A DNA stretch of 61,458 nt, filler included, from Hausera hauseri (taxonomy: Eukaryota), in assembly GCA_046269625.1 (NCBI GenBank). It is 11 parts of 11 records of this genome, joined end to end, with 100 filler letters (N's around TTAATTAATTAA, not from the genome) between each part and the next. Parts side by side here need not be neighbours in the genome. Positions count along the whole stretch, not along the records: positions 26,453 to 30,706 come from JBJURY010674217.1; 10 more parts are not named here. The stretch is one strand, 5' to 3'. Position 1 is the stretch's first letter; every line of letters starts with the position of its first letter. The translations under genes were made by a program, and so were the position numbers. Below are positions 8,517 to 50,100 of this stretch, piece after piece. The notes beneath the pieces were generated by a model. The model saw only the letters and a list, made by a program, of their open reading frames with translations, made no database searches and was not told the DNA's origin.

Positions 8517-8616
8517 NNNNNNNNNNNNNNNNNNNNNNNNNNNNNNNNNNNNNNNNNNNNTTAATTAATTAANNNNNNNNNNNNNNNNNNNNNNNNNNNN
8601 NNNNNNNNNNNNNNNN
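8517..8616. other. Artificial contig spacer
   Basis: N44-TTAATTAATTAA-N44. Confidence 0.98.
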
Positions 8617-9473: not shown

Positions 9474-11516
9474 TGCCTCTCTGCGGCGAGGCGACAGCGG
9501 GCGGATCTTTTTACGTATTGGTCTTTGATGTGCTGTTACTACGTGATGGAGGGTGGGTTGAGATGGTACGAATGATTTGTCATTTTGCAGCAGACGCGTT
9601 CAGGACGACGAAATATATTGGTGTAAGTCAGAGGGCAAAGATGAAAAGTTTTCAGATGGTGTTGATGCATCGTAACTGGATGCAGTTGAGGTATGAGTTG
9701 TAGACGAGGTGTTGTGACTAGTTGGTATTAGGTACAGGATGTTTGTATTAAAGAGGATGTTGGGAGCTGTACTGTCAGTAATAGGTGCCACGCAGTTGGC
9801 AATATCGTATTTGTTGTGGTAATAAAAATTTCTATATAATGAATGATTATGAAAATAATTTAAATCGTAAATCGTTTCTTTTAGTATTGACTTGCTGGAA
9901 GCGATCGCCATGGTGGTCACCGTAATGCTTCTAATTTGATTAAAATTATTTCCGCTCTTTAAGGAACATCGTTCGCAGTCAACAAGTAAATTATAGTGGA
10001 ACAGAAAGTCTGAACCCAATATAGATGTGCGTACATTGGCTACTGTAAATTTCCAAGTGAATGTGTTTGGGAAATTTGGGAGTGTAAAGGTTAATTTGGT
10101 AACACCAAAAGTTTGTAAAAGTTCACCGGAGGCAGTGAACAGTTGCTTTTTGAAGTGAAATTGTTTTGGATGTGCTGTGTTGGTGGGAGTAAAGAGATTG
10201 CTGCACTAGTGTCTATGAGAAAATTAATGTTTTGCTTCGATGGTGTGACGACTGCTGCTTCCAACGTGAATTCAGCAAAAGAAATGTGTCGGCTATCTTT
10301 TTGTAGGTTGTTGCCTTTGATAGAACTTGCCGTGTGTCCTCGCCGCGAAATCAGATTTTGTACCTGGTGAGTTTGGCCTACTATTTTGTGTGAGTTTAGT
10401 GGTATTGATTTTATTGTGCGTGTTGTAGTTACAGCCAGATAGGCATTTTTGTGCTTTTTTCCAAATTTTCAGTGAGCGATTCAAACGATGTTGCTTGTAT
10501 TTAAATCGGGATAGTAAAATTTACAACCGCTGCAGCATTTCTGAGCATTGTCACCAAATTTGCTGTGATAGTAGCAAATAGACGACCGCGCGGGCGAAGG
10601 CGACAGCCTTTATCGTTGATGAAATACATTAGGGGAAGGAGTTCTAGAAAAACCTCGTTGAGGCAGCGTTAACTCATTTAATTTCTCCTTTATGTTATTA
10701 ATTGTCTTTTGCAAAATTGCATTGTCTAAGCGTAATTTCGCAATTTGTTGCTGCAGCAATGCATTTTGCTGTTGGTGGTTTGTTGTTAATTCCGCAGAGA
10801 TAGTTTGTGCTGTGTGCGAGTGCAGCACTTCATAAGCTTTGTCTGACAGTTCGGCTAACTTTTCCAGTGCCGTGGAGTCCTCGACCACAGTGAGCAAAGC
10901 TCTTATTTAAAGGGGCAATGTATTTAAAAAGTAACGGCGAAGAAGTTCTGGACTATGCTCAGATGTTACGTTAAGGGTATTGAGGTGAGACAAAAATGTG
11001 CGCAAGCATTTATAAGGCTTCTGAAAACCCATTGCGTTGTCGTTGAAGAATCTTTGAATGATAGTGTCGATTAACGGCTCAGTGAGCTTAAGAACGGTAT
11101 CATAAAGTTGAGAATATGAATCGGTGTGGTAAAGGATGTCGATGATGTTTGTAATTTTAGTTTTGATGGAAGCAAGTAAATGAAAAGACAGGCTGTTGTC
11201 TTTGAATAAGGGGTCGATGATGTTTTGTGATTGGAGCCAAAATTGATGCAGTTTTAGCCATGCTTGGGTAGAATTTTGGCTGTCAAGGAAGTATTCTGTG
11301 CAGGGTGAATGAGTGGGGAGTGTGTACTGTGTCGGGGTGTTTGAAGCACTTTGTTTGGGTAAGTAAGTGATAGAGATCGGTGGTTTGGTGGGTTTGTCTG
11401 TGATATCAATAGTGGGTGGTGAATCCATGCCACCACGGATACGGAAGTGAATGTGGAGGTGAATATAGGTGGAAGACGGTTGTAGATTCTCTACGAGAAG
11501 TACCGTGGCGCCGTAA

Positions 11517-11777
11517 TGTGTGAGGTAAAAGTCTGGTGTGCAAATAAGAGTGGAAATGAAGTTATAGATTGCCGCCGTGTTTAAATGTGTTACTGCATTT
11601 GTGCAAATATTTTTGTTATTGAAGAAAAAATAGGAAATGAGGAGAGGTCGTGTAGTCGGAGGCGTGTCGTGGGGCAGCAACGAAGGGTGCCGTCCGACCC
11701 AATGGTATAGGGTGGGCGGCCGGGGCTTCAGCCTCGCCACGGCGGGTCGCAAACTGCGGGTAACCGATCTCTTACCA
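11517..11777 (-). repeat. Putative 5' LTR (about 261 bp, TG...CA) of Gypsy copy 2
   Basis: Homologous to 2313-2568 (e.g. GAGGCTGAAG..CCGGCCGCCCACCCTA.ACCATTGGGTC). Confidence 0.7.
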
Positions 11778-11974: not shown

Positions 11975-13765
11975 TCATTTCTGTTCATTTTCGATGACTG
12001 GTAATTCTTTAGGTCGTGCCATTCGAGAAGTCATAGTTCGATGGAACCTGCTTAGAGTTGGAGCGTTCAGATCTTTTAAATTAACATTGATTGCCTCCTG
12101 GAATCGCCCGATCCATTCGGCCTTTGCTCGCTCTGTGCAAGGATCGCCTAAAATCGGCGAACGAGTCCATCGGATATTCCTGGCGACACCATCAATGGAA
12201 ATGTGCGGTATAAAAATTCTGTTAAAATCCGTTTTATTTTTAGTTGCGCAATGATCCATGTAGGCGAACGCCATACTCTGACTGTACTCACCGACTATTT
12301 CATTGTTGACAAGATCTAAATTGTACTTCAAGAACAGAGGCTAAGAGTTTCTTTATGCCCGACTGATAATTCTCCATGACGTGTTGAGAATGAGTTGTGC
12401 TGCCGAGTGTCATGTTCAGTAGACCACGAATGCCATTAATGCTTTTGTGGTCGCTGTCGTTAAATCTTACGTCAATACGGATATCCATGTCGTTGGACAG
12501 ATGCAAAGGTCGACCCTCAGAGTCAACACCTAATTCACATTGGGCTCCGGTGTATCTGGTGCGATGATGATCAGTGACAAGTTCTGCGGATGGAGTAAAA
12601 ATGAGGGCCATGAGAAGCCTAAGTCCGGGAATGTATGGCATTAGAGTACAGTTTCGTAACATTAAGTCGTTACCCTGTTTACCGGTAGTACATGACTGGA
12701 CACAACCGGCTACTAACAAAAGAGTCAAGTGAATTTGTGGTTCTGGTTCGATCAACATAGAACAGACAGAATCGGGAGCAATGCTAACGGGTCGTTTGCT
12801 AGACTCCGTGACACCGTGGAATTTCATCAAGAATGGATGGTGAGGTGCGCTCAACGTAACGCTTCCAATAGATCGCTTATGTTTAACTGACTGCATCAGT
12901 GTATTCAACTCATTCGTCGTGACAATGTCATCGTCCAGTTCATCAATGTCAATGTCCGATTCGCTATCGTTCAGTCCCAGGTTTTTTACGAATCTCGGTT
13001 TCGACGTTACTGTTTCGCCGGAAAACGAATCTATTTGTCGTTTATTGCTACACTTGACCCGCTGCACATTATCCTGTCGACTACTAAAACCTTCTTCAGC
13101 ATACTCGGCAATTCCCATGATTATGAGTTCTTCATTGAGTATTCGGTTGTTATGATTGGCCATGTGCACTCGCACTAGGACGACATTATCTACAACCAAA
13201 TAGACTTTACACCCAAGTGGTGTATTTATGTATTCATTTATATATTTGAAAAACACGTCCCGATCTTTACTAGTCCATGGGTCGTCGTTGTGACATGCAA
13301 CATTGAGTTTGATTTCACTGAGTGAAATTTCATGGCTAAGAAGGGGCAAATCTTCAACAGCCGTTTCGGTAGTTCATACGTATATATAGATCGTACACTG
13401 TACGTATTTCCGTAGTCGACAAAGTACACAGTTATCAAATTAGCCTTTTTCCCAATGATTTCTGCGCGATAGAATTCACTCTCAAACGGTGCTAGACAAT
13501 AGTCACTGATTTTCACTGAATTGAGTTTTTGTTTCTTTCTTGACAATACATAGTTGGCTATCTCAGAAAATAAGTCCTGTTCTTTCTCCTTATCGTCCTC
13601 ATATATACCATAGAATATTCCGCACTCCTTTTCATAAATGAAAAACACCCGCACGTAGTTGCATTCCACTTATGGATAACCGACGTGGGTCTTCGGTCCG
13701 GCAAGATATTTGTAATTCAATAGTAACAATTTGTTTTCTCGGATGTTTTGTGCATCGATTAGTTG
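11975..13765 (-). pseudogene. TDRD9: TDRD9/spindle-E (piRNA pathway helicase) C-terminal region with Tudor domain, frameshifted
   Basis: Tudor YCLAPFESEFYRAEI...VYFVDYGN, followed by spn-E-specific C-terminal motifs LMLRNCTLMPYIPGL..LMALIFTPSAEL..RYTGAQCELG..DMDIRIDVRF...INGIR. Frameshifts near 13300-13350 and 12310. Confidence 0.85.
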
Positions 13766-22609: not shown

Positions 22610-25600
22610 TTATTTCAGCCGCCAATGTCCATACGCCCAACTCTTATTTTGCCCACCCATTTTCGCTTATCATCGTTACATGACAAAGCGACTTTCGCAC
22701 TAATTATTGTGTATAGCTAGTGCTTAATTGATCGGATGATCGTTTGAGACACATCAGCCCCTGATTGTCCTCCTTCTGCTGCTGCTGCTGCTTCATATGT
22801 ATGGCGATAATCACCGTGGTCGATTTTCTTCTGCTTCAGCTGGACTCCTTTTGCTCGCATTTTCGGTCCACAGTCCGTCATAAGACTAGCACTTTGGGCG
22901 TAGGAATATCCATTCCCAATGCTGAACCCGACCTTCACTTTCATCCTTGAAACAGCCAATTTTGTTGATTATCGCGCTGCCGTACAACGGATGATCCGAT
23001 TGGTAGGTGGACGTGTCCAGTAATTAATCTGACTGCATTTGCTGCAGTAGCGGTTCGCGATTGACTCTTCAGCTTAAGGAAAAAACTATCTGTCACCGGC
23101 AATTATACTAATGTTACAGCCGTCAAAAATTTGCCGGTAACGTGCCAAATCGCGATACTGTAGCTCATACATCCGCAACTTGCTCAGGTCTAATACCACT
23201 TGTCCGATGTAACTTGGCCGGTTCAGAACGACTTCTCTGTTTAACGGCACCGCAATCAATCCATCGGCAATGTTCATTGACCACCGAAACTGTGCCTTGC
23301 TGGTATACGTAACCAGCCGATTTTTGCTGTTGCCTAGGCGTACATTGAGCCGCTTTTTCAGATTCTCCACTGTTTTCCGTACAGGGAATTGTTTTTCAGC
23401 TTGCAATAGCCCTTTTCGAACTTTGTACAAGCTGCGGCTCGTTTCTCCGAATTTCCATCTGTGTACGCCCTCAATATCGGAGCTTGAACAAATCGGATTG
23501 CACGATTCAGCTGTGCAACGCGTACACCGAGCTGCGTGTAGAACTGTAGCGGACGCCAATGGACCACGTAATTCAGCTTTGGTTCATGCATCATGAGCAG
23601 TTTCTTCACTTTTTGGTTAAATGGTGCGACCGGCAAATTGTCCAAAACGTCATGCAGCTCATCTGGTATCTTGAGATCGACCTCCATCAGGTATCCGACT
23701 CAGCTTGCCATGTCTGCTCGTGGTAGGTTGACCATTATGTCGTCCAGATCTTGTTTGTCGACTACCCATTCAAATGAACCGTACGGCAAGGGTTGCGAAA
23801 ACGCCCAGCCTTGTAGGTTATTAATATCAATATACAGCAGTGACGTGGTATCTGTAGCACTGATCTGATGCTTGTTGACAAATATCATGCCACCTCGAAT
23901 ACCAAAATCAAACAGCCGGTATATTTCCGGGTATTGCAGCAGCTCAATGTCACGATCCAGTGACATTAGAGCTGACGCCCAACTCATTCCCTGTATGAAA
24001 TAAACGTTGAGTGGCTCAGCCTATCTTCAGCCAACGCTTTAGCTCGAAATATCTGAAACACAACGGCTAATAAGTACACTTCCTGTTTCAGATACTGAAG
24101 CATGCACTCCAACATATTTCTGCAGCCGAGTTCTGTCCAACACCTCTGTACTTTACGGTATTCATCCTCTGCGATACCTGTCCATCGCGACAGTAATTCT
24201 TCTGCTGTTCGGAGTCTCTCATATGATGTTGCAAAGTCATACGGGAATATGCCTTTGCCACGCGCAATCTGTGGGGAATTGCGTCAATGTTATCTGTACA
24301 TTCGGCAGGGTATTTACGAGCTTTACTAGAGACTCATTGAGAAATTGTAATGAGTCGAGGAAGCGTACCTGGAACCGGTTTATGCGTGCTGACAGGGACA
24401 GGTATTTCTCCATTGTTGTTGGGATTACTGACAGTTCCCAGTTGGGAAGTCCATCAATGGCCCATTTCAGTATGTGGTGAAAATCATAATATCGAAAATT
24501 ATGAAAGATCACCGGTAAAAATTGCCGCACACGCCTTGCCAAATTGCATGAATTACATGCTGCTCCGAGATCTTGATTACTAAAATGATCGTGATTCGGT
24601 ACGAGCCGTTCCAGTTCATCAAACGGTAATATTTTGTGGCACAGGTAACATTCATCTGTGACTGCAAACCTAGGGCGTTCATCATCATCTGTGTACATCA
24701 AAGGTTTATTGCTATTTCTACTGTACCAGGGTGCGATTTTAATTTCCACTATAGTTTGCAATTGCTGCGGGAAATCATGTACACAGTTCCAGCCGTGAAA
24801 GACGTAATACTGCGGCTGACCGACCGCTTTTATTGGGACAAGCTACATACTAACGGCGATTGGAACTTGTTTTTGATCATACACGTTGTGCAGTGGTAGA
24901 ATTGCCTCAATATCGGCATATACCACATATGCCGGAATGTCTATTTTCGACCAGTCACTGAATCGGAGCTCCTTTCTGGGTGCATAACGTACATGGTTGT
25001 TCCCGTTGAATTCTGCTTGCACAGCGTCACATGTTTCTCCAGTGTTGTTTTTGACCTGAAACCATGCAGACATCGTATTCGCTTTTTGATGAACTGGTCA
25101 TGTTCCATGTTCAACAGTCTATTCAGATTTGTCACTGCCACGTAATGAAATTTTTCGGCCTGCTCCAACGGCAACAAATTTACCGAGCGTCCATTTAGGT
25201 ACCGACTACGATAAATTATCTCCACATGCGGGTTCTTATAAATTTCTTCGTCTTCCGGTATTTCAATTATTGTGTTGTACCGGAAAACGTTGATTGACAG
25301 CGTCGGATTACGCCGTTCAAAAGCCGGAATGGTGTTCAGTTTTATCCTCATCCAGCATTGATCAAATTGCAATTCGGAAAAATACTGTCGATACTGATTT
25401 GGACGATTTGCATGATATCTGTTCACTTCGCTGTACTTCAGTACAGCCAGAATACTGTAAAGAAAACAGCATTCGTCTTCAGTATTTTGTACATTTACTA
25501 CCGCCCGAGACTGCTTTAGAGATGCAGGTGTCGGTATGAATGACCGTCCAGACAAATATACCACGTCACTCGACTTTGTGATGATAAAGCTGAGTGTGAC

Positions 25601-26050
25601 AATTCGTATAATTCGCCATCCACTACCCTTTTCGGTATAGTTGGCAATTTTCTCATCCAACTTTTCGCCTACATCGGCAATAAAATTTTTCGAATACTGT
25701 ACGGCTCGATGTGACAGGTACCATTGTTTCCTGTCGCCCTGTACATTTTCAAATTCTGAAAGTGCATAATATTGCACTTTGCAGTTGTTGAGTTTGAATT
25801 TCTCCACCTCTAATTTCAACCGGCTGCGCACACCGTACAGAACATGTCTGAGCTGTAATGTTGTTGTCCCCGACATGTTTACTTTCATGTCCACGTACGA
25901 TTTATTTAGATTGTACTTGACAGTAATGGAAGGCTCTTGCTGTTGCATCTGCTGCCATTCGGTACTGTTTCGGATGTATTCGTCAAGACTTGTTGAGGCC
26001 TGACGTTTATTGCTTGTTGAGGGGATACTGTTTTTTCTTGTCACCATCAC
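22610..26050 (-). pseudogene. Protein-primed family B DNA polymerase (pPolB), heavily frameshifted
   Basis: AVVNVQNTEDECCFLYSIL; VVYADIEAIL; FHNFRYYDFHHIL; RFLDSLQFLNESL; GIRGG; YIDINNLQGWAFSQPLP; EVDLKIP; KLKNNSLYGK; RPSYIGQVVLDLSKLRMY; RAKGV; DDKR..YGH. Confidence 0.93.
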
Positions 26051-26352
26051 TTTCCTTTTTGGACCGTTGAAACTGGTTCAAGTGGTCCTTGTGCTAGTTA
26101 TAAAATTGTTCATAGTTGATTTCATCAACTATCGAACAACCGGGACAAACGTAGGCCCGTTTACCGTGCACCGTTGTGGCGCCATAGTACTGCTCCATTA
26201 CACTGGCAACCATCAACGTCATGCACTCTACTACTACAGTATCGCGAGTATGTGGGGCAATGCACAACCATCATCTTTGCACGCGTAAACGGGCCAAGAT
26301 GATGCTTGTGCATCGCATAAAAGTCGGGGTATGGACAAGGGGCCGAAATACT

Positions 26353-26452
26353 NNNNNNNNNNNNNNNNNNNNNNNNNNNNNNNNNNNNNNNNNNNNTTAA
26401 TTAATTAANNNNNNNNNNNNNNNNNNNNNNNNNNNNNNNNNNNNNNNNNNNN
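26353..26452. other. Artificial contig spacer
   Basis: N44-TTAATTAATTAA-N44. Confidence 0.98.
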
Positions 26453-26456
26453 AATA

Positions 26457-28516
26457 ATGATGTTAGTGAAGCAGATGGGAGCAGTCACCATATACGACTG
26501 TGACAAATTCAAGGTGGGCCAGAAATATTCATTGATGGACTTAGAAACATGTGAGGATGCGAGGCCCCACAAGCTTCAGGCAATAGAGAAGAAATATATA
26601 CTATATCAACAACGTGAGTTAATTGTAATGGATGCAACAGAATTCATGATACGTAGGTCTCGCAGCATATTTCATTGTGGTAATATGCACGGCCATTCTT
26701 CAATAATCAAACCTACTACACCATTGATACCAATGAACGTGGACAGACAACATTGCTTAGGAGCCCGGTCAACCGGTAAAATGGTTTGGGACAGCATGGA
26801 ATTGGAAGCCCAAGAAGGAAAAATAATTAGAGCCTACAAAGTGGCAGTAGGAAAATTGAACATGCACACCGGTTATTGTGTCGGGGGAGAATATGACACA
26901 GGGAAGGGAATAGAAGGAGGAATAGTAATCGTAGATTTTTATGAAACCGAGTTAAGATCCTTAAAAGCGATGTTTCATAGCGTTACCAAACTATTCACCG
27001 AAAATCAGAAATGTCACATTTATTATGGTGCTTGCACGTTCCGAAGTTCGGTTATTGCATGGAATTCACCTTCCAAGAAGGATTGCAATTTCATCAAAAT
27101 CAAAGAGTTAAAATTTAATGAAACCACAGGGAAGCGTTATTCGAGCAATTTACATGCTAATACCAGACCAAGGGAAGATGTAATAGAACAATCCACACCG
27201 ACGATATTAATATCAGACGTGCATGGGTTATGCATGTAGTTATGCGATGTAGTTATGCATGCCACTAACTAAGAAGCATTTTTTGTAGCGGCGACAGAAA
27301 TCGACATGAAAACGTATGATTTAAAAACACAAGATGTGCGGATTGAGGATTACCTCAAAAACCGAGACAACTATTTCTATTATAAGGGACAGACCGGAAT
27401 AGCGGAGCTATATCACAAAATGATAACAAATGACGCAGATTAGATACTGAAGTCATGAGAACCAAACTGGCTTTAATTTACGCCAATCCAGAACTGGCAT
27501 CACCAATTATTCCAATGAAAGACGGTATTTTCGGGCGAGTTACTGGAGAAGTCCTATTAACTTACGAATGCGAGAAAAGAGACGTACTGATCAACGTAGA
27601 AGAGAAGAGATTTATGCAAGAATTACCGGTCATCTATGAAAATATGCAGAGACTAGCGATGCCACTCATCAGAGTATTATTGACAAACTCCACCGAACCA
27701 ACAATATTGAAGGAATGCAAAACAAGTTTAGGCGAACCTATGTTTAGACGTAGTGGAAATGACTAGATAAGTCAACCAAACGGAGGTACGGCCGCAGCCC
27801 CTAGTAAATTAACCGAGATAAATCTAATCAAAGGGTTATCGAAAGATAAATTCGAAGATACAGCTAATAAAGGAATTTATAGGCCAAAAGACATAGAAGC
27901 TTTTAGGCAATTTTTAGCATTTATGCGTCAGCGAACTTATGAACTGAATCGGGCCATGTCAGTGGTCATGGATGACACCCGCTTTCAAGCGAAATGGGAA
28001 TCGTTACTCAGCGCTAATCACTATCAAAGAGTAACTTCAGAGATATTGTATAGAATTTGGGGAAGGTTTTTAATTTTCGGACAAGCCGCATCTGGATTCT
28101 TAGCCATCTACTTCTTAATCCAATTAGTTAAAGCAATGATCAAAGCTATTATAAACGGATATAAAATATTCACCTTGACAGGATTCTCTTGCAAAATTTT
28201 GACCGCAATTATCATACCCTTTGGAAAAATGCTAAAGGCGTACGAGGAAAATCCCTGGAAAAATGACGTAGAACGACACGTGGGGTACTATAACCGCAAA
28301 CGACGAGGGAGGCCTTCGATTTTGTATAGACGTAAAAATAAGACAATAGTAACACGACAGAACGATTCAGATGATAATGAGCCTAAGGGAGGAGAAGTAA
28401 GTTCCAGAATGAGGATGCACAAAATGTACTCCGTAATTAACGCACCGTTGCCCATCACGCCGCCAACAGCACCAATATATGAAGACTGCGGCCTGCAAAT
28501 CAATCGTATCATGTAG
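26457..28516 (+). pseudogene. env: Envelope glycoprotein of chuvirus-like / gB-type class III fusion family, with stops and a frameshift
   Basis: IYDC...YSLMDLETC, LYQ, IFHCGNMHGHSS, YCVGGEY, GEVLLTYEC...QELPV, and TM WGRFLIFGQAASGFLAIYFLIQLVKAMIKAIINGY match the recalled chuviral glycoprotein pattern. Confidence 0.8.
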
Positions 28517-28775
28517 GTTCGAAATCTATCGAAAGCCTATTAATTATGAAAATCCTTATGAGAAGACAAAGCAATATGGAATACTACGGAAAATGAATGT
28601 TATCCACCAAGGACCAACCGAAAACGACCACGGAATATTGTACTCAAAAAGGATACCGCGTCACATAGAATCGAAATCAACGATCTGGGAGAACCCGAAA
28701 CTGTGTTAGATCTCAAGTTTATTACCCCAGGAACCGCTCATCGACAGTCGCGTTACCGGAATAACAAATAACGAC

Positions 28776-30706
28776 TTGTATCCGAATAGAGAATTAAGAC
28801 AATTAAAACAAGATATAATTTCATCGCCAGAAATAACGATAAACGGACACAGAGTCTCTATTATAAAACGGTCCAAGATAGTGTCAAATAGCTACGGAAC
28901 GGTAGCAGAAGGGAGACCATTCGCTAAAATACACATCGAAGATTGGGAAGTGTATGCATTAATCGACACAGAATCATAAAAATCATTTATAAAACATAAA
29001 TCTATACCAACCACATTGCGCGATTAGCTATGCCCACCCGCATTATCGGATCCAGGTAGTGTAGGAGCGTTTGGGCAAGTATCGAAGCCGTAATTCAAAT
29101 GGACCCCTACCGTTTATATGATGGGCCAAACACTTCAACATAATTTGCGGTAATGGACCAGTTAAGAGATGATTTAGTGCTAGGTTGTGATGTATTGAAG
29201 AAAATACCAGGTATGGCAATCGATGTGCACAATTGAAAATTAATTGAGCTTGAACCGATAAAGTGGACAAAAGTAATAAAGGAAAGGAAATCGGGCGAAG
29301 TATGGATTCCGGTAGACAAAAATATTCCGCCCAGAATTGAAGTGATAATTTTCGCACAGATTCGTCAAAACGAAGATTGGCCCGTATATTTTGACCTCAA
29401 GAGAATATCAATCCAAACCTCATGCTTAGCAATATTCTATGTAGAGTAGTGACGAGACGAATACCTATCAGATTAATAAACAATGCACCAATCCCCGTAA
29501 GACTACATGCTAACACAACGTTAGGTCATACTTGCAGAGTATTGGCAGTAACAATAGAAGAAAAGCCATATAAGTGTGCTGAATTTTCACCTCATGTTGA
29601 AACCAAATTCTCTTCCGAAGTGTATTGCAAATTCTGCGAATTACTATAAGTACAGTTCAGTAATTGCACAAAATGAGGAAGACATAGGCAGAGCAAAAGC
29701 TCTGAGATTAAAAATTCCACTAAGGAAGAAACCAGGCTCAAATGACGAGATCGATCTAGAAGAACAGAAAATGCCCAAGTGGTACCCGCCTCCTCATTCA
29801 TTGAGACCGGAAATAACTAAAGAAGTAGAGAGAATGTTAAAGGCCGACATAATTTGACCAAGCTACCGATCATGGTATTCGCCTATACTTATGGTTAAGA
29901 AGAAAGGAACTACAAAACATAGGTTTTGTATAGATTATCGGGCATTAAACACACTGATGATGAAAAACTCGTTCCCCCCTACCATCAGCACAAGAAGCAT
30001 TAGATAGATTATCAGGAGCAAAATGGTTTACCACTCTTGATTTACAATCGGGATACTGGCAAGTGGAAATTGAAGAAGAAGATCGATACAAAACAGCGTT
30101 CAAAACACACGACGGCGTATACGAATTTAATGTTATGCCCTTCGGCATCACCACAGGGCCAGCTACTTTTACTAGAATGGTGAATAAGATGCTTATGGGT
30201 TTGACCATGCATTCGCGTACTTAGATGACGTAATAATAGCATCAAAAACAGAAGAAGAACATTTGAAGGACATTGAAGATACACTTATGCGATAAGAACA
30301 AGCAGGGTTGAAACTAAATCCAAAGAAATATAGATGGGTACAGAATGCAGTAGCATACCTCGGATATATAGTTGGAGAGGGAGGGTCAAAACCAGACAAA
30401 TCCCTGTTAAATAAAATATCTGATTGTATGGAACCGCAGAATCAAAAAGAGCTAATACATTGGTTAGGTTTATGTGAGTATTATTCCACTTACGTACCGG
30501 ACAATTCGAAAATCAATGTACCATTATATCGTATACTGAAAAAAGGAACTAAATGGAAATGGACAGAAGTGGAGCAAACAGAATTTGACGAAATAAAGAA
30601 AATTTTATCAAACGAACCAGTTTTAAGGTACTCTGGCTTCAACCTACCATTCATCATTAAAACAGATTCAAGTAGGAAAGGCATAGGACACGAATTAGCT
30701 CAGAAA
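28776..30706 (+). pseudogene. pol: Gypsy pol: protease, RT and RNase H start, degenerate
   Basis: RPFAKI...YALIDTES, VLGCD, RFCIDYRALN, LDLQSGYWQV, VMPFGI, AYLDDVII, YLGYIV, FIIKTDSSRKGIG. Confidence 0.9.
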
Positions 30707-30806
30707 NNNNNNNNNNNNNNNNNNNNNNNNNNNNNNNNNNNNNNNNNNNNTTAATTAATTAANNNNNNNNNNNNNNNNNNNNNNNNNNNNNNNNNNNNNN
30801 NNNNNN
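30707..30806. other. Artificial contig spacer
   Basis: N44-TTAATTAATTAA-N44. Confidence 0.98.
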
Positions 30807-30810
30807 TGTC

Positions 30811-32110
30811 ATGTCTCGACCGAAAAGATTATCTAAATCTATGGCTTTGAGAGAACTACTTGGACGCAGTTGGACAGAAGAAAATGATAATGAAAATGAT
30901 GACGACGGAAGTTCGACTGATGCTGTAAGACATAACATAAACTTTGATGGGCGATATATGATATGGTTTGGTTTGACGATATGTGGTATGCTTTGTATAG
31001 GTTGATGAAAGAATAATGGAAGATCTGGAAGAAAGTGAAACCTCAGATGCAAATATTGGAAGAAGCGTCATGCCTGTGGGATCGATGGAGTTAGGCTCAT
31101 TCATTAGCAGTAGTTGTGAGATATGGAGCGCACGTATACCAGAAGCTGTAGGTAAGCTGGCAGCCAAAAATATTTTAACAACACGACCTGGCATCACCGC
31201 ATGGCCACCAGTAGAATTATAGGTAACCCAATATTAGAGACATTTAGAGTGATATTTGGCAATGAAATGACGCGCACGATCCTATAGAGAGGCTAGACGT
31301 GTTGCTGGAGACGCCTGGATAGATATGGATAATGCAGAACTTCGTGCATTCTTAGGACTGTTGATATTACGCGGTGTATATAAGGCTACTGGAGAGGCAG
31401 TTGATGAACTGCGGTCAGAAGATAAGGGGTGGTCAATATTTTGGAAAACAATGTCGATAACCAGGTTCAAAACTATACGACGTCATTTGCGTTTTGATAT
31501 TAGGGAAACCAGGGCTGCTCGTTTGGCTAGAGATAAATTAGCTGTCTGACGTTTGCTTACCGAAGAATTTGTAAATAATTTTCAGCGTGCTTTCATTCCG
31601 CACGAATGTCTCATGGTAGACGAACAACTGTACCCATGCAGAGGTAGGTTCCCACATACGCAATACATGCCAAAAAAACCGTCAAACTATTACTGCGCAA
31701 ATTTGAAAATATACTGCAGTAAAAAAGAATGGGCAGGGTGGTTATTGATTTGACGCGATTTCTTTACGGCACAGGTCGCAACAACGACTGAGAATTTTTT
31801 ACGAGATGTCCCTAAGGAGCTTACCCAGTACCAGGGCCGCGAGACGTTTTCCACAATATTTACTTTATCAGAGAGGGAAAAAGTTATCCTTGCGTTCAGC
31901 TCACAACACCGCGACGTTTCTGTATTGCCAGGTGATAAGAAAAAGCTTGTGGAGATGAATTATTACAATTCTACCAAAGGAGGTGTGGATGTTGTAGACG
32001 AAAGAGTTCGGACGTACTCGGTAAAATTTGCTAGTAGGTGGCATGTTTTTGTGTTTGCCAATTTGTTGAATTTTTCGCTGTATAATGGCTACGTTTTGCA
32101 TTGAACAAGA
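30811..32110 (+). mobile_element. piggyBac transposase, degenerate, with 76-nt intron 30925-31000
   Basis: ELRAFLGLLILRG, MSITRFKTIRRHLRFD, RDKLA, VDEQLYPCRGR...YMPKKP, YYNSTKGGVDVVD. GTAAG...TGTATAG intron joins ORFs in frame. Confidence 0.88.
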
Positions 32111-33712: not shown

Positions 33713-35720
33713 CTATGTAAAAATGTAAAATCCTAAACGTATCATTATCATCGAGAATTCACCTCTTATGGCGAGTTCCGTAACCTCCCTGGCCAGCAAG
33801 TCGAGGTTACGAGTAATTTCCGCAGTTGCTGGATCCTGTGACCCATTCGGACTGGTGTCGTTCGACGGTTGAGGACAATCAGAACCGGCCGACCATGTTG
33901 GCACAATACGAGTTGCTGGTGAAACTGAAGACTGATCAATGAGCGTATCGACGACCGGATACGTCTGACATTGGAGAAATAACTCCATCAGAGCACTTTG
34001 GTTTGGGGCGCTCATTGTCCGTTCTACTTGGCGTTTGATGAATGCCTGATGGGACATGTCGGTGAATTGCTGGGGTTGATTGAACGCTGCAGTTGACGCG
34101 GTCAAATGGACGGGTAGAGTCATGTCACCATAAGGTAGGTAGGGTTTGTTGTGAGATAATTGGAATCCCAATGCCGGTGGTACCGGACACAGTTGGTCGA
34201 GAATGGAACAAGCAGGAGTGGGCGGTCGGACGATGGTTGGCGCATTGCCATTGGGGAAATTGCACGTCTGCATGGTGAGTTGCTGTCGTCCGCTGTTTTT
34301 TCTATGAGTGGTGACTCTTTGGGATTCGTTGGTTTTTCGTGGAGGACCTTTGGAATTCTCTAATTGATTTCTCCAGGACATGCAGAGATTCTTATGACGA
34401 GATGTGAATGCCTATGGACAAAGTAAAGAGGAGAAAAGTTGTGTGTGACAAACATCATGATCCAAAATGGTGTCAATGATCTGAATGAACGTGAGGTAAC
34501 TCTCATCATCCACCTTCTTACTAACAAGCAGTTGTGAACAAACTCTGCTCAAACACCGAATGATCTGACCAGGCAGATCACCCTGGACAACGTCACCATT
34601 TACGGAATGCGGTGGACTATCAATGCCAAATGACGCTGTAACGACATAGCCGGAATTATCGGGGGAAAATAATTTAATTGGAGTTGCCAAAACATGTTTC
34701 ACTTCATTTACACAGGCTCGCAATGCGGCAATACTGCCCGATGAAATAAGGTCAGATTCCAGCTGCCTTAGTGTCGGCTGTCGTGATTCGAGTTTTTGAA
34801 TATTCAGAAGGATTTTGTTTCGTGCGCCTTTTGTAACGTTCTGTGCCTCAAGCCAATCATCCGTAATTGACATCATCCCATCATAATCCATCTGCTGGAA
34901 CAAACTAGCATATTTATGCAATCGCAGACTCTTCAACCATCCAGGTACACATGCCATACCAGAACTATATTTCTGCTCTAATTGGTGATGATGATAATGA
35001 TGATGATGCAATTGATACTGATGAATAAATGAATTACGCCGATCACCAAAATCACCAATTGTATGACGCATCAATGGTACTGATGATGACAACGACTGAC
35101 AACATATCCCATCTGACTCATTGTCATCATTATCATGTTGTAATGAAGGTCCATTGTTATCCATCGCTGCTGTATTTGTCGTTGTTGTTGTCGTACCTGT
35201 CAAATGACACGTACGAATTGTCGTACCTCCTACCAATACTGATGATCCACTGCTTGGTGTTGGTGTGTCCATTGATGACTGACCCTGCAGAGATCCTGTA
35301 CGAGTTACCTGATTGTTATCTGATGACGATGAACCATTATTATCAATCATGCCAATACAACATGGCGGATTATTGTGACTGTTGTCAGGGTCATATGATA
35401 CGGAATGAGGTAACAACATTTGTTCATCACCTGCACAACTTGATGTGCTACTCTGTGGTGACAATGGTGGTTGCGTACGTCGACCAACAGATGACTCAGC
35501 ACCAGACATGAATCCACTGGAATTGTACGAGCATGCCGATTGAGGTGATGCCGATGCAGACAAACAATTGCCACCTCCACCAACAAAAAATTGCGGCACG
35601 AGTAATGAGAATGAGTGGGTCTGTGACAGATTCGTTCCAGTGGCGAATGGTGATAAAATGCTGGGTCGACGAAGTCGTTTTGGTTCTTCTTTTTCATCGA
35701 GTAAATGTCGTTCGGTGGCC
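33713..35720 (-). CDS. SAMD4: Smaug/SAMD4 homolog C-terminal part (SAM plus PHAT domains), 42-nt intron 34412-34453; fused in frame to COG3 fragment
   Basis: SGMACVPGWLKSLRLHKYASLFQQMDYDGMMSITDDWLEAQNVTKGARNKILLNIQKL; GDLPGQIIRCLSRVCSQLLVS; spliced DHD|AFTSRHKNLCMSW; VERTMSAP; EITRNLDLLAREVTELAI. Confidence 0.85.
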
Positions 35721-35759
35721 AATTCATCAATCACGGAATGGCGATTTATTTCCACAGAT

Positions 35760-37082
35760 AATAATTTCTGCATGCTCTCAGCAATTGAAATCATCATTTC
35801 CAATTTTGCTGGATAAGCAAGATCGCCGGAAGACGGAGAATACCCAAGTATTTGTGATTTTATATAAATATGGGTTCTGAATACGAGTCTTTCTTGCACA
35901 TCAACCAAAATTATTTGACACATTCGATCAATTGGTGAATCCGACAACTCTGTTTTCGCTGAAAAGTCTTCAACGAGCTCAAGTTTCAAAATACAACAAA
36001 GTTCAGCTAATGTTTCAAGATGATTTATATGTATAATAAAAGGCCTGAACTCGTCATATAAAATAGTACAAAGCTGCGTCAGCATTTCTTTAAGCATTTT
36101 ATAATCTGAGTTAACAAAAAATTGTTGATATAAATTGGTTTCATCATCGCGCATTCGAATCATTAAAGTTCCTCCACTCCTGACGAAAGCACAACGATCT
36201 TTTGGAAATCGATTGATTAAATCGTCAATAGAACACTTGATTACTTGATTTAAGAGCTCTTTTCTATTGGAAATAAAATGTTTTTCGCATTCTTGCAAAC
36301 TTTGTCCATATAAATCACAGATAAGCTTCCTGCTTGAAATTAACTCGATAAATGGTCGTAACTTAACACCCTGAGAACGAAATTTACCGCACAGCATCGT
36401 GAATGATTTATCCTGCGTAATTTCAGCCTTATTAGTAAACTGGGCAAATGTTTTATTAATTTCTTCAGTAAAAAATGTAGAAATTCTGTTTAAAATTTTC
36501 CATAAACAGTCTGTAACTTTCAGTAAATAATTTGATGATTCCCGGTAATTGATCTTTGATGAAAGAAATTTATAACAGTCATCAATCTGATTGAGAATAG
36601 GTTCCAAATTTTCAACGGTTAACTACAGACTGGGAAAAGATATTTTCATAGTTAAATTGTCTACTGCAATAAAATATTTTGAATTTTCCTCAATCGATTT
36701 GGCTTTCTCAATGTATTGGTTCTGATCATTCAAAAGATGTTGACATGCTTCATGCAATGCATTTGTTTTATTAGACGTGTTTAAGTATAATGTTTTTAAC
36801 TGGCTCATTTTGTCCAAACACTTCAATTTCCAAATGAATTTCATCACATAAGTTTTTCTTAGATTTTATGTCCAAAATAATGTCGTTGCTTTCTGCTTCT
36901 TCATCTACATTATCAAGAGACTTTTCTACCGAATCGAGCCAATTATAAACTTCATCAGCTAAAATTTCTTCGTAATCCGGAAATTGTTTAATTTTAAATT
37001 CAGCCTCGAACGTTTCTGAAACCATTAATTCACTATCCACATCCCACTTCTGACACCAATTTGTGGGTTGATTTAAATCCAT
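35760..37082 (-). pseudogene. COG3: COG3/Sec34 N-terminal part, with one frameshift and one stop, 3'-truncated
   Basis: TSNKTNALHEACQHLL; LNQIDDCYKFL...NYRESSNYL; LCTILYDEFRPFIIHINHLETLAELCCILK; DVQERLVFRTHIYIKSQILGYSPSSGDLAYPAKLEMM. Confidence 0.88.
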
Positions 37083-38367: not shown

Positions 38368-40742
38368 TTAACACTTATATAGCAAATAAGATATAGCCCT
38401 TTGAGCTTTTTCTCGCGTAATTCCTGTAGCCAACATCTTCTCCAGAATTTCCAATTTGTGTAGCTCATTTATCCTTTCTTCCTCTAGATTCTCATAAAAT
38501 TGTCTACTTATTCGCAGCATTCTATTACATAACGTAGTGAATACTTCATCTGGAATTATTACTTGCGTGTCGAATGAGCAAATGATGTGTGTAGCCTGGC
38601 CAGTAACGTTCTTAGTAAGGGATCTATGTCCACTGGTTTAGGGGAGTCATTTGTTCCTGCTAGTAATAAACGTCTTACTATTTCTTCATTTCTAACTTTC
38701 CTATTTTCGTTCCTCTCGGCCTGCCTCTTCTCTTGGCTTCCGTCTGAACCGTAACGTCTTGTGTATCACCCATAGGGTTTTCTACTCCTCGTTGTTCCAT
38801 TTCTCTTAGGATATCTTCCACTGTTGCTTTCGCTCTTGCCTTTGGATGTATTTCAGTTATATTTATCGGATTATAGTTCTCACTTCTGCATCCGATTCTC
38901 AGTAGTCTATAGTAACCGTATAGTGTCCTTCCACAATAAATTAATCCATAAGGACTGCCTTGATAAAATGGTTCCAGCTCCTATATCTTTTCTCGTAAGG
39001 TTTGTATGTCATCATTTTTGTTCATCCGGATGACTTTCATATCTTGATTTCCTTCTTTTATCGTTATTCCGATAGCTTCATTTCTTCATTTCTCTTCTTC
39101 GGCAGCTTTGGCTGGCACAGTCCTGGCTATTTCTCTCACAGGACTGATATCTTGGGCTAACAATACCAATTGCGGTAAAATTTCATTTATTCTTTCTACC
39201 GTTACATTACTGGTAATTATCTTCAGTATTGTAGTAGTTGTTTTATCTACATCGACTATATTATTGGGGTCTATTGTCACTACAGATTGTATAATATCAT
39301 CTTCTTCGTCTAAGTCTACACCGGGATTCTTTATTATTTGATCCAATATCGTGGCATCAAAAATCGGTGAGGCTTCGGTTTCCTCCTGACTAAGGGAAGG
39401 TGTACTGAGATTACTCTTCTTTCTTCACCTTTTCTTTTCCTTTTCTACTTCTTCTCTTTCTGTTGACGTCTCTCTTAACTCGACGTCCATGTCGACTATT
39501 TTCTTATTACTTTTCTTTTTTCCTTTACGAGATATCTGTTTCTCCGGTTGATCTCCTACCATGTAGATATTACTTTCTTTCAGTCTTTGTTGTTGTCTTT
39601 TATACTCCTTCACTTCTATTTCTAATTGCTTCTTCATACGTAGGGATAATGAATCATTTATATAGTTAATACTTTCTTTCTTCTTGTCTCTCTTCTTAAC
39701 TTCTTGTTCACTAACACTATCATCCGTTTCGTATTCTCTGTCGGATGATTCGTCTGACGTAGCTGATACATTATCTCTCTTTTGCTTATTCTTAATACTT
39801 GGTTTTGAGGAGTCCCTTTTACGTGATCTACATGATTTTGCTATGTCCATACTTATTACAATTGAAACATTTTAGTATGACTTCGGAATCTATGTTAGGT
39901 AGTGATCTTCCATCTTTCTTATATTTCTTCTTATAACTTGCTTTTTCTCCGTCGTTCTGTAAATTGAATCTCACTTTTCTTTCTCCATCTGATTCAGCTT
40001 CGGTGGCTGACGTTTGTGAGGGGCTTCTATTTCTTTCATAGCGTTGATATTTTTGCATACTATTATTTCGTGTTTTGTCGTAGCCATTATTATTACTTTT
40101 AAATTTATTCCACCTATACAATTCCGCATCTCGTTCGGCCTTTCGTGCCTTTCTTATGGCTTCCTGGAAGGTAGGTAAGTCTGCTTGTGAGATTATCATC
40201 CTTAATCTTTCTTCTAATCCGTACTGAAACTGGGCTAACAACGCATTGTTTCGTATCGTAACGTCAGGATGTGCTCTCGCTGCGAGTTTCTCCAATGCGC
40301 AGACAAAGGCCTGGACTGTTTCATCTTTTCGTTGCCTCCTTCTTATAAATTCTTCAATTCTCTCCTTTCCAGAGGGATCTATCAGAAACTTTTGAGGCAG
40401 ATTTTCTTTAATTCCTTTCGAGTCCTTCTTATTTTCTTCAGGCATTTGGAAATAAATCACGAAAGCCGTCCCTTTTAAATGAAGGGGTAATCTTTCCATT
40501 CTTTGCTTGTTGTCTCAGCCAAAACTTTTGGAATATACTTCGTATTCCATCATAAAATCTTGTATATTTTCTTTACCTGAAAACGTCTTCATTGGTAAGG
40601 TGAAGTCAGCCTTTGACTGAATCATCTGCTCTACATTTTGGTTTGCCATGGGTTATTCTTCGCTTAAATTTTGTATATACTCTAATCCAAAGGGTACGTT
40701 TTCTTCAGGTTGGTACACTGTTCCTTTTCTTGTCGTTATCAT
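38368..40742 (-). pseudogene. gag: Retrotransposon Gag polyprotein: capsid - CCHC knuckle - charged linker - ubiquitin-like domain - AT-hook - UBA-like tail; no pol
   Basis: KTFSGKENIQDF...G*DNKQRMERLPLHLKGTA, RRQRKDETVQAF, QFQYGLEE, CFNCNKYGH(fs)IAKSC. The same frame continues through three stops to IGITIK...DDIQTLREKI*ELE...GLIYCGRTL and KRRGRPRG. Confidence 0.75.
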
Positions 40743-45695: not shown

Positions 45696-47195
45696 TTTGG
45701 AGCAGGTTCTCTGCGCAGCTGAGGCTCCATCTGTCTCAGTTTGAGAATGACGGCAACAATAATAATAGTAGTAATAACAGTAATACCGGATATAACACCA
45801 GCAATGATGATGTATCTCTGTTCCATTTCTAAGGCTGAATCAATCATTGTGGCGTTTGTGAAATCAACTTTGATATATAAATACGTGTTGTTATGAAGGC
45901 GTGGGTTTCCAAAGTCTTGGACAGAAAATGTCAGTCTGAAGTTTGTTTCACTGCTTCTTGTCAGACGTCTCGCCAAGTAAACAGCGCCAGTGGAATTGTC
46001 AATGCCGAAAGTCTGTCGAGGATTACCCTCGGCGATCAGGTATAGGAGCTGGGAGTTTCTGCCGAGGTCTAAATCTGTGGCACTGACTGATGTAAAGACC
46101 GTCCCCGGAGACATGTTTGCACTGATTGTTATGGAATCATTTCCAGGCCAGGGATAGATAATTTGTGGACTGTTATCGTTGGCATCACTGACGCTTATGG
46201 TTAGGGTTGCAGTGGTGGTTAACGAAGGTGTTCCCATATCACATACAGACACGATGATTTTATAAACGTCCTCTGCTTCCCTATCGAATGTCTTCACGGT
46301 AGTTATGGCGCCAGATTTAGAAACTTGGAAGCTTGTATTCGGATCGGAGACTAGATGAAACACAAGCTTTCCGTTGATACCCTCGTCTCCGTCTGTGGCA
46401 CTAATTTGAGCAACGAATGTGCCAGGTTCCTCATTTTCCTTGGTTTGGTACTCAGTTCTCGTGATCCGTGGGGAAATGTCATTGACGTCTTCAACAAATA
46501 TCGTCACTGTGACGCTTCCTGTCAACGAGGGTTTTCCTTTGTCGACGGCCTGAATGGTTAGATACAGTATTGGATTAGCTTCTCTGTCGACTGCAGATTG
46601 AAGGGATACCCAACCTGTAAATGGGTCAACAGTGAATGCGTCACTAGTGTTCATCGTCAGGTGATACGTTACTTCACTATTGATGCCTTCGTCAAGGTCA
46701 GTAGTGGATACTTGGACAACATTTTCATGCATCTTCTCGTTTTCTGTAACACTACCACTGTAGCTTGATCCAGGGAAAACTGGACTGTTGTCATTGACAT
46801 CAGACACTCGAACCGTGAAATTCACGGACGTTGACAGACTTGGCAACCCTCGATCTGAACACTTCAGAATAACAGTCATCTCGCTTTCCGATTCTCTGTC
46901 CAGCGTCGCCTTGACTTCGATAGCAAGACCGTTTTCTTCAATAGGCGTAAGAGCAAAATGAGAATTCAAAGAAACGCAGTCAACTGCCCCACTGTCTCCT
47001 TCATCAGTATCGTGGTACCTCAGTCTTCCGACAAACGATGCCAGTGAAATATCTTCGGATAATTGAACGCTATTTGGATAGACTGGGTCTGCAAGAATGA
47101 GTGATAGCTTGGGTGGTGTGTTTCCAACATCGAGAACATTAATTACAACAATAGCTTGTGATGCTTTAGGAGATCCCCCATGATCCTTTGCATGA
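45696..47195 (-). CDS. Protocadherin large exon (at least four cadherin repeats plus TM), 5'-truncated or interrupted
   Basis: LDRES, VSDVNDNSP, VDREA, EDVNDISP, FDREA, SDANDNSP; TM YIIIAGVISGITVITTIIIVAVIL. Sequence upstream of AKDHGGSP is not cadherin. Confidence 0.88.
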
Positions 47196-50100
47196 GTTGT
47201 GGGCGTGACCCAGAACCGGCATCTGTGTTGGGGCCTGCAGTACGAACTAACAAAGTTTTTCTGAGCGTTATGGATTACAAAATGTTGGAACACCGCCTGA
47301 CAAAGCTCAAACAGGACAATATAATCATATACCTGCCTACTGCGGTGGATGGATGGGAGGGAGACCTGAAGAAAGGTGCTGCTGATACATGTTAGCATTT
47401 TAGCTAGGCTACTTGTTGCTTCTGACGCTGGAGCCATGAACAACCTGTAGCATATCAGTACCTGCACGGTAATAAGGTCGGTCGTGTTTTGTTAAAAGAG
47501 GTGAGATATGATCTTATTTACATTAGAGCAGATGTAGAGTCCACCTAATGTCTAATCTCCCAGTGCTAGAGTTGATAGGGAGAATGAAGAGTTTACTACA
47601 GAGCAAATCCAACATGAAGCTTAAGTTAGTTTCCAATTCCAGCTTCCAACTCGGAAAATGACTTAAAGGCGATAACAACTAATTTTTCACTACCTCTAGC
47701 AAATATTCTCTTATTAGTGTAGTTTGAATAATGTAGTACTGGTTTGATGGATCTGGGTGTTGTAGTTTTTGAGCTAGAGCAGATTAATTATGCTAGAGGT
47801 AGTGAAGAAATAGTTGGATTCATCCTTTAATCATTTCCTGAATCGAAAACTAACTTTAGCTTTGTGAAACCAACCCACAAACATTCCTGAATGAACACTT
47901 TCATCCACCTTTGCTGGGATTACTGCAGCTTGATATGAGAGGACAAAGAAGGAAACAAAACTGCTCATGGAGGCTCAAAGGTCCACTGTGGAGCAGAGGT
48001 GTGTCCTGACCACCTCACAGCTCCATGTGACTCTCAGGTTTCTGTCAGCCCAGTGGTGACATCACATGAACAGAAGATGGAAAATGTGTCATTCTTCCAA
48101 ATGGGCAAAGTGGATACTACTTCCTGGTGAGTAAATATTGTTACTTACAACCTATGAACTAATGTGACAGATACTTGTAAACATTCATTAAAATAAACCA
48201 TATTTAACATTTCTTCTTCCAGGTCCAGCTGACAGCGAGGTGCTGGCGCTGCAGAGCTGAAGGCTGCTGATCTGGACACCAAAGAGCAGCTGGAGTTGGA
48301 CATTCCATCTGACAAAAACTTTACAGATGCTCACATGAAACGTCTCCTTAATTTATACTTTTCACACATACTTTCATCATCGGTAGATGAATTTGTGCAA
48401 ATAATATTTAGATCTGCCCCAAATACCTGAATCTCTTCAAAATACAGTAAGCAGATAAATGTTATGTGTTTTACATAAAGAAAACATAAAAAAACCCAGA
48501 ATGAAGCTAGAAGAAAAAATAAGTCTTCATTTTTGTTTTCCTTTAATTAAAAGCATAAAACTTAAAAATAAAGTAATTAAGACATAATCACACTGTACAA
48601 TACAGAGAAACATTATTTTCAATTTACATTTGTGTTTACAATTTAATAAAATGATGTAGTTATAAAATCTATTTTTCCTGTTTAGACTTCAGTCTGTTTA
48701 GTTATTCCTGTTTTTAGAAAATGGTCAAAAAATGAAGTCTTCTTAGTTTTCACTTAAAATCAGTTTAGCTCTTAAATTCACTAAGCCTGCACAGATCTTA
48801 CTGTTTCAGGAGGCAACCACAAAATACAACACTTGATGTGTTCTGACATTATTCACATTTCAACAGTTTTGCTGACCTGATCTTGGGATGTTTTAAACTG
48901 CTGAAGGCCCACTTTAGGTCACACTGTAACTTGTTCCAACTTATGAAAATTTAAAGACATCTACTCTGAAGATGAAACAAAACAAATCATCCAGAAGCTA
49001 TTTTACACGTGTCAATACCGTAATGCTACCAAAATAATAAAACAACTTATTTTTAATTTATACGTAAAAAAATCCCAAGATGTCTAAAATGATATAGTGT
49101 GACCGGGCCTTAAATGACCCGTGACAAAGTTCTGTTTTAGTTTAATCAGAGTCAGGATTTGGTCCAGAACAGGCAGAGTTAGTGAAACAGGAGTAAATGG
49201 TTGTAGGCAGGATACAAGTGTGTGAAACTCTGAATGAGTACAAGAGGGAGTCCACATCTGTCTCAGACAAACTGAGGCTCTTCATGTTTTTAAGTCTTTT
49301 CTCTCTGGCTTTTGACTCAGCTTGAAGTGCTGTTTTTACAGTTACCCTTGTTGGTTCTGGTTATTATGTACACCACTGTTAAACTGTGTTGTTTTAAAGT
49401 GTTTTATAAATAAAGCTGGCATGGAATAGTTGTGTTACTCCATCTTATCGCTGTGTTTGGGCATCACAGGTTGGCCTTGATGTTGATCACAGCTCCTCGT
49501 TCTCATCCACTGCGTCAGGCTCATCTGAAGGTAGCAATAAAACACAGGTATTAATGTTAGATTAAGATTGTTCCCTAGCAGTATAACATGTATCCTCCCA
49601 TCAACCTTTATTTATGAAGGACGCGATCCCCTATCTTTCAATCATTTACTGCTTTAAATTAGTTGAAAATAAATAGGAATTAAAATAAAAATATTTTTAA
49701 TGATTTAAAATCAGTGTTTATATTAAATGAAGTCATAAATCATCTAGGACCGCCACTGACTGAAATATTTTTTCACCCTGACTAAAATCTTTAGAAAACC
49801 TGGTGCACAGATACAGTAACATTTAGATTAACATAAAAGAAAAAAGTGCCACAGGACTTCTTCAACATGTTTAATACATGTCTTATGTTTCTCTGCCATA
49901 AACACGTATTTTAATTGCAGAGAAAATAGTATTAAATATGAATGAATTCTATAATGCAGTGCCCTTCAGACACTAAAATCATACCTGATATTCTGGTTGT
50001 TTTAACCCTTCTGAGGATGCAGCGTCTCTGCTCCGGTTGTTGGTTGAAGTCCAGACACAGTAAAGCTTTTCCTCCATGGGCCGTTTCACAGCAAAATGAA

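Follow-up and report, generated by a model that had tools for sequence, protein, structure and literature searches.

Organisation of the locus

The window analysed here is a stretch of DNA of 61,458 nucleotides consisting of a chain of unplaced contigs, in which the assembly linker N44-TTAATTAATTAA-N44 is present 10 times. The element under study occupies positions 26453-30706 and coincides with a single contig, 4254 bases long; nothing on either side of it belongs to the element. As the contig ends are assembly linkers, the gag gene, the integrase and the long terminal repeats (LTRs) have been cut off by the assembly and are not missing from the element itself. The contig carries an envelope gene (env) followed on the same strand by a linker without assigned family, a weakly matching aspartic protease, a reverse transcriptase (RT) and the start of an RNase H domain (Table 1), all of them searched against Pfam in translations in which stops were read as X.

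Table 1. Features of the env-pol contig and of a related fragment in the window
Feature	Position	Strand	Evidence and remarks
Assembly linker N44-TTAATTAATTAA-N44, left end of contig	26353..26452	.	Same linker 10 times in window
Env N-half: tail of signal peptide and predicted class III (chuvirus/gB-type) fusogen ectodomain	26454..27440	+	PF24664 E 3.6e-16; AlphaFold2, Foldseek, VIA
Two internal stops of Env N-half	near 27237, near 27270	+	
Env C-half: remaining ectodomain, membrane anchor, cytoplasmic tail	27443..28490	+	PF24664 E 3.7e-30; hydropathy; 29-32% identity to most relatives
Frame break ahead of Env C-half and one internal stop	stop near 27764	+	
Linker between Env tail and protease; frame break near start and one stop	28491..28907	+	No gag or Pfam match
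Aspartic protease, catalytic motif degenerate; several stops and frame changes	28908..29230	+	RVP E 0.095, Peptidase_A3B E 0.048 (weak); motif seen; position as in relatives
Protease-RT spacer, broken; site of dUTPase-like domain in Burro	29231..29767	+	tblastn to P0007, P0047, P0053; no Pfam match
Reverse transcriptase and connection; stops and two frame changes	29768..30559	+	RVT_1 E 1.7e-17; Ty3 RT 4ol8 E 3.9e-19; 40-48% identity to env-first polyproteins
YLDD of reverse transcriptase	30218-30229	+	
Start of RNase H-like domain, cut at contig end	30560..30706	+	RT_RNaseH_2 E 1.3e-11, profile 1-49 of 100
Assembly linker, right end of contig	30707..30806	.	
Decayed gag-side fragment, same kind of element, other contig, no physical link to the element	38374..40604	-	48% identity to Gag of P0004; weak zf-CCHC and Ty3_capsid matches

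The envelope gene

Both halves of env match the Monjiviricetes_fusion family (PF24664), the N-half over profile positions 14-335 and the C-half over 343-600 of 653. The gene begins with the tail of a signal peptide at the contig start, encodes 14 cysteines and a hydrophobic segment at about 28097-28153, and is broken by three stops and by one frame break near 27.44 kb. This coverage of the profile from 14 to 600, together with the cysteines and the anchor, bears out an earlier note on this DNA, made from the sequence alone, which had recognised a near full-length class III glycoprotein with the tail of a signal peptide, a cysteine pattern and a transmembrane segment.

The AlphaFold2 model of the N-half, computed from an alignment of 17 rows, has a mean pLDDT of 70. 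In Foldseek searches its top match among viral models is a chuvirus-like G protein (E 2.3e-17) and its top match among solved structures is the gB of a herpesvirus (HSV; E 2.1e-7), and the comparison with chuvirus G and herpes gB that had been suggested as a check of the fold is thereby positive for both. VIA-align places the model on HCMV gB with Z 8.3 and an rmsd of 7.3 over 233 aligned residues, a Z near 8 being modest on its own, and the VIA rows comprise gB, rhabdovirus G and the thogotovirus glycoprotein, all of which are class III fusogens. The profile matches and the modelled fold support the assignment of env as a class III fusogen of the chuvirus/gB type.

Pol and the decay of this copy

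The best match of the RT core among solved structures is the Ty3 RT, far above the foamy-virus RT, while the connection piece of the RT matches the caulimovirus-type enzymatic polyprotein and Ty3 about equally. The comparison set in which Ty3 ranks first contained no BEL reference, and the relatives of the element carry Gypsy-type Pfam sets. The Ty3 match and the order of the protease, RT and RNase H families in Pfam agree with the original assignment of the element to Gypsy.

Between env and the protease, no match to a gag capsid or zinc knuckle was found by Pfam, by motif or by comparison with relatives, as had already been noted from the sequence. The protease-RT spacer and the gag-side fragment have no Pfam match to SUMO-like, BCL2-like, BIR, ankyrin or dUTPase-like domains, the accessory types of Burro-like elements; a BCL2-like domain was considered for the gag-side fragment and was not shown, a first search giving no match and a second E 0.056.

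The second frame that had been described as starting at 28479 and running through two stops into the protease motif does overlap env and does contain two stops. It is open from 28437, and its two stops stand on either side of the degenerate protease motif, the second of them close behind it. Its supposed continuation into the RT does not hold, since about six more changes of frame are needed to arrive there. The approximate coding path of the whole contig contains about 12 stops and 8 frame changes, and the copy is therefore dead.

Relatives with env-first polyproteins

An exhaustive protein search with the env N-half among 1.84 billion representatives gave 39 matches, and a search with the env of one of the relatives, P0007, among proteins of 1444-4598 amino acids gave 11, P0007 itself included. 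A word-based search of longer proteins that used the env N-half as query gave no match, pattern scans with the env alignment over metagenome, prokaryote and viral contigs gave no locus, and a search of prokaryote genomes with P0007 gave no match. One candidate relative, P0024, was set aside as an unrelated repeat protein. Among the 49 relatives examined, 13 have env and RT in one open reading frame (ORF), with env first in every one of them and the integrase 3′ of RNase H in all 13; seven combine gag, env, RT and integrase in one ORF. The contig is collinear with P0007, P0047, P0052 and P0053 from the start of env to RNase H. Identity of its env to the relatives is 23-32%, and its RT is closer to the env-first polyproteins (Table 1) than to two further RTs of Gypsy type from the window (29%). 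The RT tree, built without reference lineages, leaves its forks open and has three long branches; the branch of the contig is long and does not fall inside the env-first clade with support.

The whole design is present at the DNA level at locus L001, where one ORF of 3703 amino acids encodes Gag, which has two zinc knuckles, then ubiquitin-like stretches and env, and after these a pair of proteases, RT, RNase H, integrase and a second membrane module. No LTR, primer binding site (PBS) or tRNA gene was found at L001 or at a second locus, L002, the ORFs of which begin at or near a contig edge. Weak accessory matches occur in the relatives, to Bcl-2 in P0005 (E 1e-3), to PF11976 in L001 (E 0.018) and to ankyrin in P0043 (E 5.5e-6). 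The relatives have a signal-like segment before env, and their first protease motif lies 148-297 residues past the anchor motif (both motifs were present in 14 of the 17 scanned), the corresponding distance in the contig being about 300 residues. The P0004 Gag, to which the gag-side fragment of the window is 48% identical, belongs to an ORF that continues into the closest env.

Gag lies ahead of env in the same ORF in 10 of the 49 relatives, which are all of those with a gag match. This order, together with the lack of a capsid or zinc-knuckle match in the linker, speaks against an env-gag-pol element in which a very short gag is hidden in the linker, as reported for oribatid mites. A linker of about 140 residues to which no family is assigned would offer a place for it, and the available text of PMC13524379 describes an ENV-GAG-POL order with a short gag in Arachnida, and even so the chance that this explanation is right is minute.

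The earlier note had proposed an independent capture of an RNA-virus-type fusogen by a Gypsy lineage, which would be one unrelated to the planarian element Burro. In keeping with this, chuvirus-like G proteins are the best structural matches of env, its identity to the relatives is low, and GAG-ENV-POL elements are not monophyletic as far as the available text of PMC13524379 goes. However, the best matches of env among the 1.84 billion representatives include retroelement polyproteins of the same order, and env and RT of the contig match the same set of env-first polyproteins. P0040, a stand-alone glycoprotein of 653 amino acids with the highest PF24664 score, ranks only 37 of 39 in the env search. 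The motifs of env also resemble, by eye, those of the Schmidtea C1a envelopes shown in the available part of PMC13524379. A separate capture is thus very improbable, and the proposal is not upheld.

Another contig of the window carries a fragment of the COG3 gene with trematodes as its top matches (44%). In a tree of 26 rows, which took in 25 of at least 120 matches, its long branch joins the flatworms with support of 100/99. This one gene points to a host that may be a flatworm or another fast-evolving spiralian.

Continuity of the env-pol junction

Two public runs, X1 and X2, contain the element family, and their contigs were matched to the element at 80% likeness; one of the two may be the run from which the window itself derives. 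Among the runs listed for the family there is no RNA run, which carries no information on expression. The family is multi-copy, with 12,700 contigs of X1 and 234 of X2 falling on the contig and filling 30 of 30 bins in each run. Copies that differ by 15-19% bridge the env tail and the linker, for example over 28370-28676, 28364-28774 and 28608-28969. Among the matches listed, no run contig spans the interval from anchor to protease, and the continuity of the junction is therefore read stepwise.

A junction produced by nested insertion, deletion or misassembly, joining env and pol of different elements, had been named in the earlier note as the case that would overturn its reading. The assembly is fragmented and the contig short, and, besides the missing single run contig from anchor to protease, the linker matches no family and exceeds that of P0007, P0052 and P0053 by about 100-130 residues. 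Against these points, both runs contain divergent copies that cross the junction, only 1-2% of the X1 matches run into unlike sequence, base composition is even across the contig including the junction, and the same relatives match env and RT in the same order. A chimeric junction is thus largely refuted, with only a very slight chance of being correct.

The frame disruptions at the junction are not shared by most copies. Measured by X1 depth, which is not equivalent to copy number, the env-tail frame break is absent from 86% (11 contigs), the linker stop from 90% (51 contigs) and the stop beside the protease motif from over 99% (69 contigs), and both X2 contigs that cover the env-tail break are without it. 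These values answer in the affirmative, for the family, the question of whether env and pol share a frame: the stepwise copies and the 13 env-first relatives have env in frame with pol, and this broken copy does not.

A different possibility is that env, though placed ahead of pol, is a separate ORF, with Pol produced at the env tail by a programmed frameshift or by readthrough. The env frame of this copy closes at the stop 28514-28516 and the protease frame, open from 28437, overlaps with it; about 14% of the X1 depth shares the break seen in the window. A 1:1:1 ratio of Gag, Env and Pol, as a single polyprotein would give, would be unusual, and this counts for a separate env. Protein searches also favour fused forms and are unable to reveal relatives with a separate env ORF. 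On the other side stand the absence of the break from most of the X1 depth and from X2, the presence of env and RT in one ORF in every relative that has both, and the approximately eight frame changes that decay has introduced into this copy. A separate env ORF is accordingly improbable, and the overlap of the env and protease frames is most simply read as decay of one frame.

The contig is very probably the middle part of a dead copy from a multi-copy family of Ty3/Gypsy (Metaviridae) elements with a gB/chuvirus-type env before protease, RT and RNase H. The element is likely Burro-like, and its intact form would encode one Gag-Env-protease-RT-RNase H-integrase polyprotein. The env-first relatives and the bridging copies support the (gag)-env-pol order, or Env-Pol polyprotein, that had been suggested at the outset. 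Gag, integrase, LTRs and PBS are attributed to the element by way of relatives that are 23-32% identical in env, and would be expected in intact copies.

Proposed mechanism

A single Gag-Env-Pol polyprotein must cross the membrane of the endoplasmic reticulum (ER) much as the polyproteins of flaviviruses and alphaviruses do. In an intact element, Gag would be made first and stay in the cytosol, after which a signal sequence inside the chain would direct the Env ectodomain into the ER. Transfer would halt at the anchor, with protease, RT and integrase remaining on the cytosolic side, attached to the Env tail, and signal peptidase together with the protease of the element would release the parts. 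In this way Env, in place of a Gag-Pol frameshift, would bring Pol to the budding membrane, and the fusogen, as a trimer, would let particles enter other cells. The copy in the window is itself incapable of any of these steps.

A second predicted membrane module is seen in the relatives, at a site that lies beyond the reach of the contig. Two hydrophobic segments follow the integrase in 7 of the 12 RT-bearing polyproteins scanned; the module has no Pfam match and no fold match at E 0.001, and its model folds poorly (pLDDT 37). This module could be an attachment protein. A compact Burro-like family in a little-sampled flatworm-like host, in which one polyprotein supplies both a gB-type fusogen, placed between Gag and Pol and holding Pol by its tail, and a type I membrane attachment protein behind the integrase, is a tentative and rather unlikely extension of the model; if true, a single polyprotein would give the lineage an entry machine of two parts. 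The available text of PMC6431247 and PMC13524379 contains neither a mention of the post-integrase module nor a test of the processing of a gag-env-pol polyprotein, and either may stand in Sacco 2022, Grohme 2018, their supplements or the figures of PMC13524379.

Comparison with known elements

The arrangement is already published, and the element is new neither in its order nor as an independent capture. The order, which the earlier note had called non-canonical, has precedents in gag-env-pol elements in the available text of both PMC6431247 and PMC13524379. The former describes the planarian Burro/GYPSM1 elements, giant Gypsy elements with an internal region of up to 25 kb and a total length of over 30 kb, with an env that is placed between gag and pol in the same frame, has its matches among the glycoproteins of mononega-like viruses and is followed by protease, RT and RNase H; in what is available of PMC11410931, Burro is merely named. 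The contig is like Burro/GYPSM1 in having an RNA-virus-type glycoprotein gene 5′ of protease, RT and RNase H, and its relatives show weak ubiquitin/SUMO-like, BCL2-like and ankyrin matches. Of the giant size, LTRs and accessory domains of these elements the 4.25 kb of the contig show nothing, and the copy is dead. Over the 4.25 kb seen, the element works like one of Burro type, and none of the defining features tested speaks against this.

The available text of PMC13524379 (Chary and Hayashi 2026) reports GAG-ENV-POL elements with a gB-type env in Nematoda, Bryozoa and Platyhelminthes that are not monophyletic, and treats gag, env and pol as ORFs, its main text containing neither "polyprotein" nor "Burro". 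Schmidtea errantiviruses 1-6 (group C1a) in that source share with the contig the env-pol order, a gB-type env, a Ty3/Gypsy pol and a likely flatworm host, and their envelopes are alike in motifs and cysteine spacing in a comparison made by eye only. The nematode C1 and C2 envelopes shown there are, by eye, less like the contig env than the flatworm ones, and the host gene points to flatworms. The same source cites non-canonical endogenous retroviruses of nematodes (Sacco et al. 2022), in which a metavirus env of RNA-virus glycoprotein type precedes pol.

Insect errantiviruses have a separate env ORF 3′ of pol, whereas env of the contig lies 5′ of the protease. The nematode elements of Sacco et al. 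2022 reportedly form one gag-env-pro-pol ORF. Mosquito BEL/Pao elements with a chuviral glycoprotein (Dezordi 2020, as cited in the available text of PMC13524379) have a glycoprotein of the same broad family, and the contig differs from them in its Ty3-like RT and in having env 5′ of pol. Rotifer elements (PMC5408684) and Cer1 (PMC10309623) were rejected as closest kin, their extra ORF lying 3′ of pol in the available parts of both sources. The contig has a compact spacing from env to RNase H and a single protease motif, in which it agrees with P0007 and P0053 and differs from P0043 of 4844 amino acids. With it, the published gag-env-pol Gypsy elements gain one more decayed family, and the view that they occur in flatworm-like hosts receives support.

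Mobile elements and host-gene fragments in the window

The lineage of the main env-pol element is also represented by a decayed gag-side fragment, which ends about 80 residues short of the expected env start; it lies on a separate contig from that element and cannot be physically linked to it. Two contigs have in common the 5′ part of a different Gypsy family, and near three other decayed Gypsy pol genes sequence comparison in the window found no env match. Of two further fragments, one resembles part of a DNA polymerase B of Polinton type and the other a transposase of piggyBac type. Among the intronless host-gene fragments, one is taken to be CDC5L-like and another, for which a Pfam search gave no match, is assumed to be Tudor/spindle-E-like. 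The COG3-SAM ORF, whose SAM-domain region we take to be Smaug-like, is possibly a chimeric retrocopy.

Features of the window and of two DNA loci of relatives (L001, L002)
Feature	Location	Strand	Remarks
Gag-side fragment	window 38374-40604	-	48% identity to Gag of P0004, a related protein
Gypsy 5′ region	window 1305-2550; 10514-11760
Gypsy pol, decayed	window 3-338	-
Gypsy pol, decayed	window 7530-9671	-
Gypsy pol, decayed	window 55411-57261	+
Polinton-type (presumed)	window 23086-26077	-
piggyBac-type (presumed)	window 31271-32104	+
CDC5L-like (presumed)	window 2406-3371		Adjoins 1305-2550
Tudor/spindle-E-like (presumed)	window 12300-13373		Adjoins 10514-11760
COG3-part/SAM-domain fusion	window 34415-36622	-	Intronless, 736 aa; Pfam
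Cadherin repeats, protocadherin-like	window 45698-47491	-	Intronless, membrane segment; Pfam
Post-integrase membrane module (predicted)	L001 10063-10860
Downstream ORFs	L001 11375-13473; L002 10617-12666

Additional modules in related elements

In L001 and the related proteins P0007, P0045, P0047, P0049, P0052 and P0053, a second predicted membrane protein lies 3′ of the integrase within the same ORF, with a predicted layout of signal-like segment, ectodomain and anchor. This module had no match in a Pfam search, and its predicted fold is poor. By eye, L002 seemingly carries a further membrane module of such kind between its proteases. The database entry for the env-pol retroelement polyprotein P0007 (HBK71150.1) gives it as a Flavobacteriaceae MAG protein; it is likely animal DNA binned with a bacterial genome. 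Aspartic-protease motifs number two to four per single polyprotein in P0006, P0008, P0043 and P0045-P0051, several of which have one such motif 3′ of the integrase.

Both loci have a short downstream ORF whose sequence, judged by eye, resembles a coiled coil. Both also contain a downstream exonuclease-like ORF (PF00929, E 1e-3 and 1.4e-5). The downstream ORFs of L001 and L002 are reminiscent of the DEDDy extra ORFs in rotifer elements (PMC5408684).
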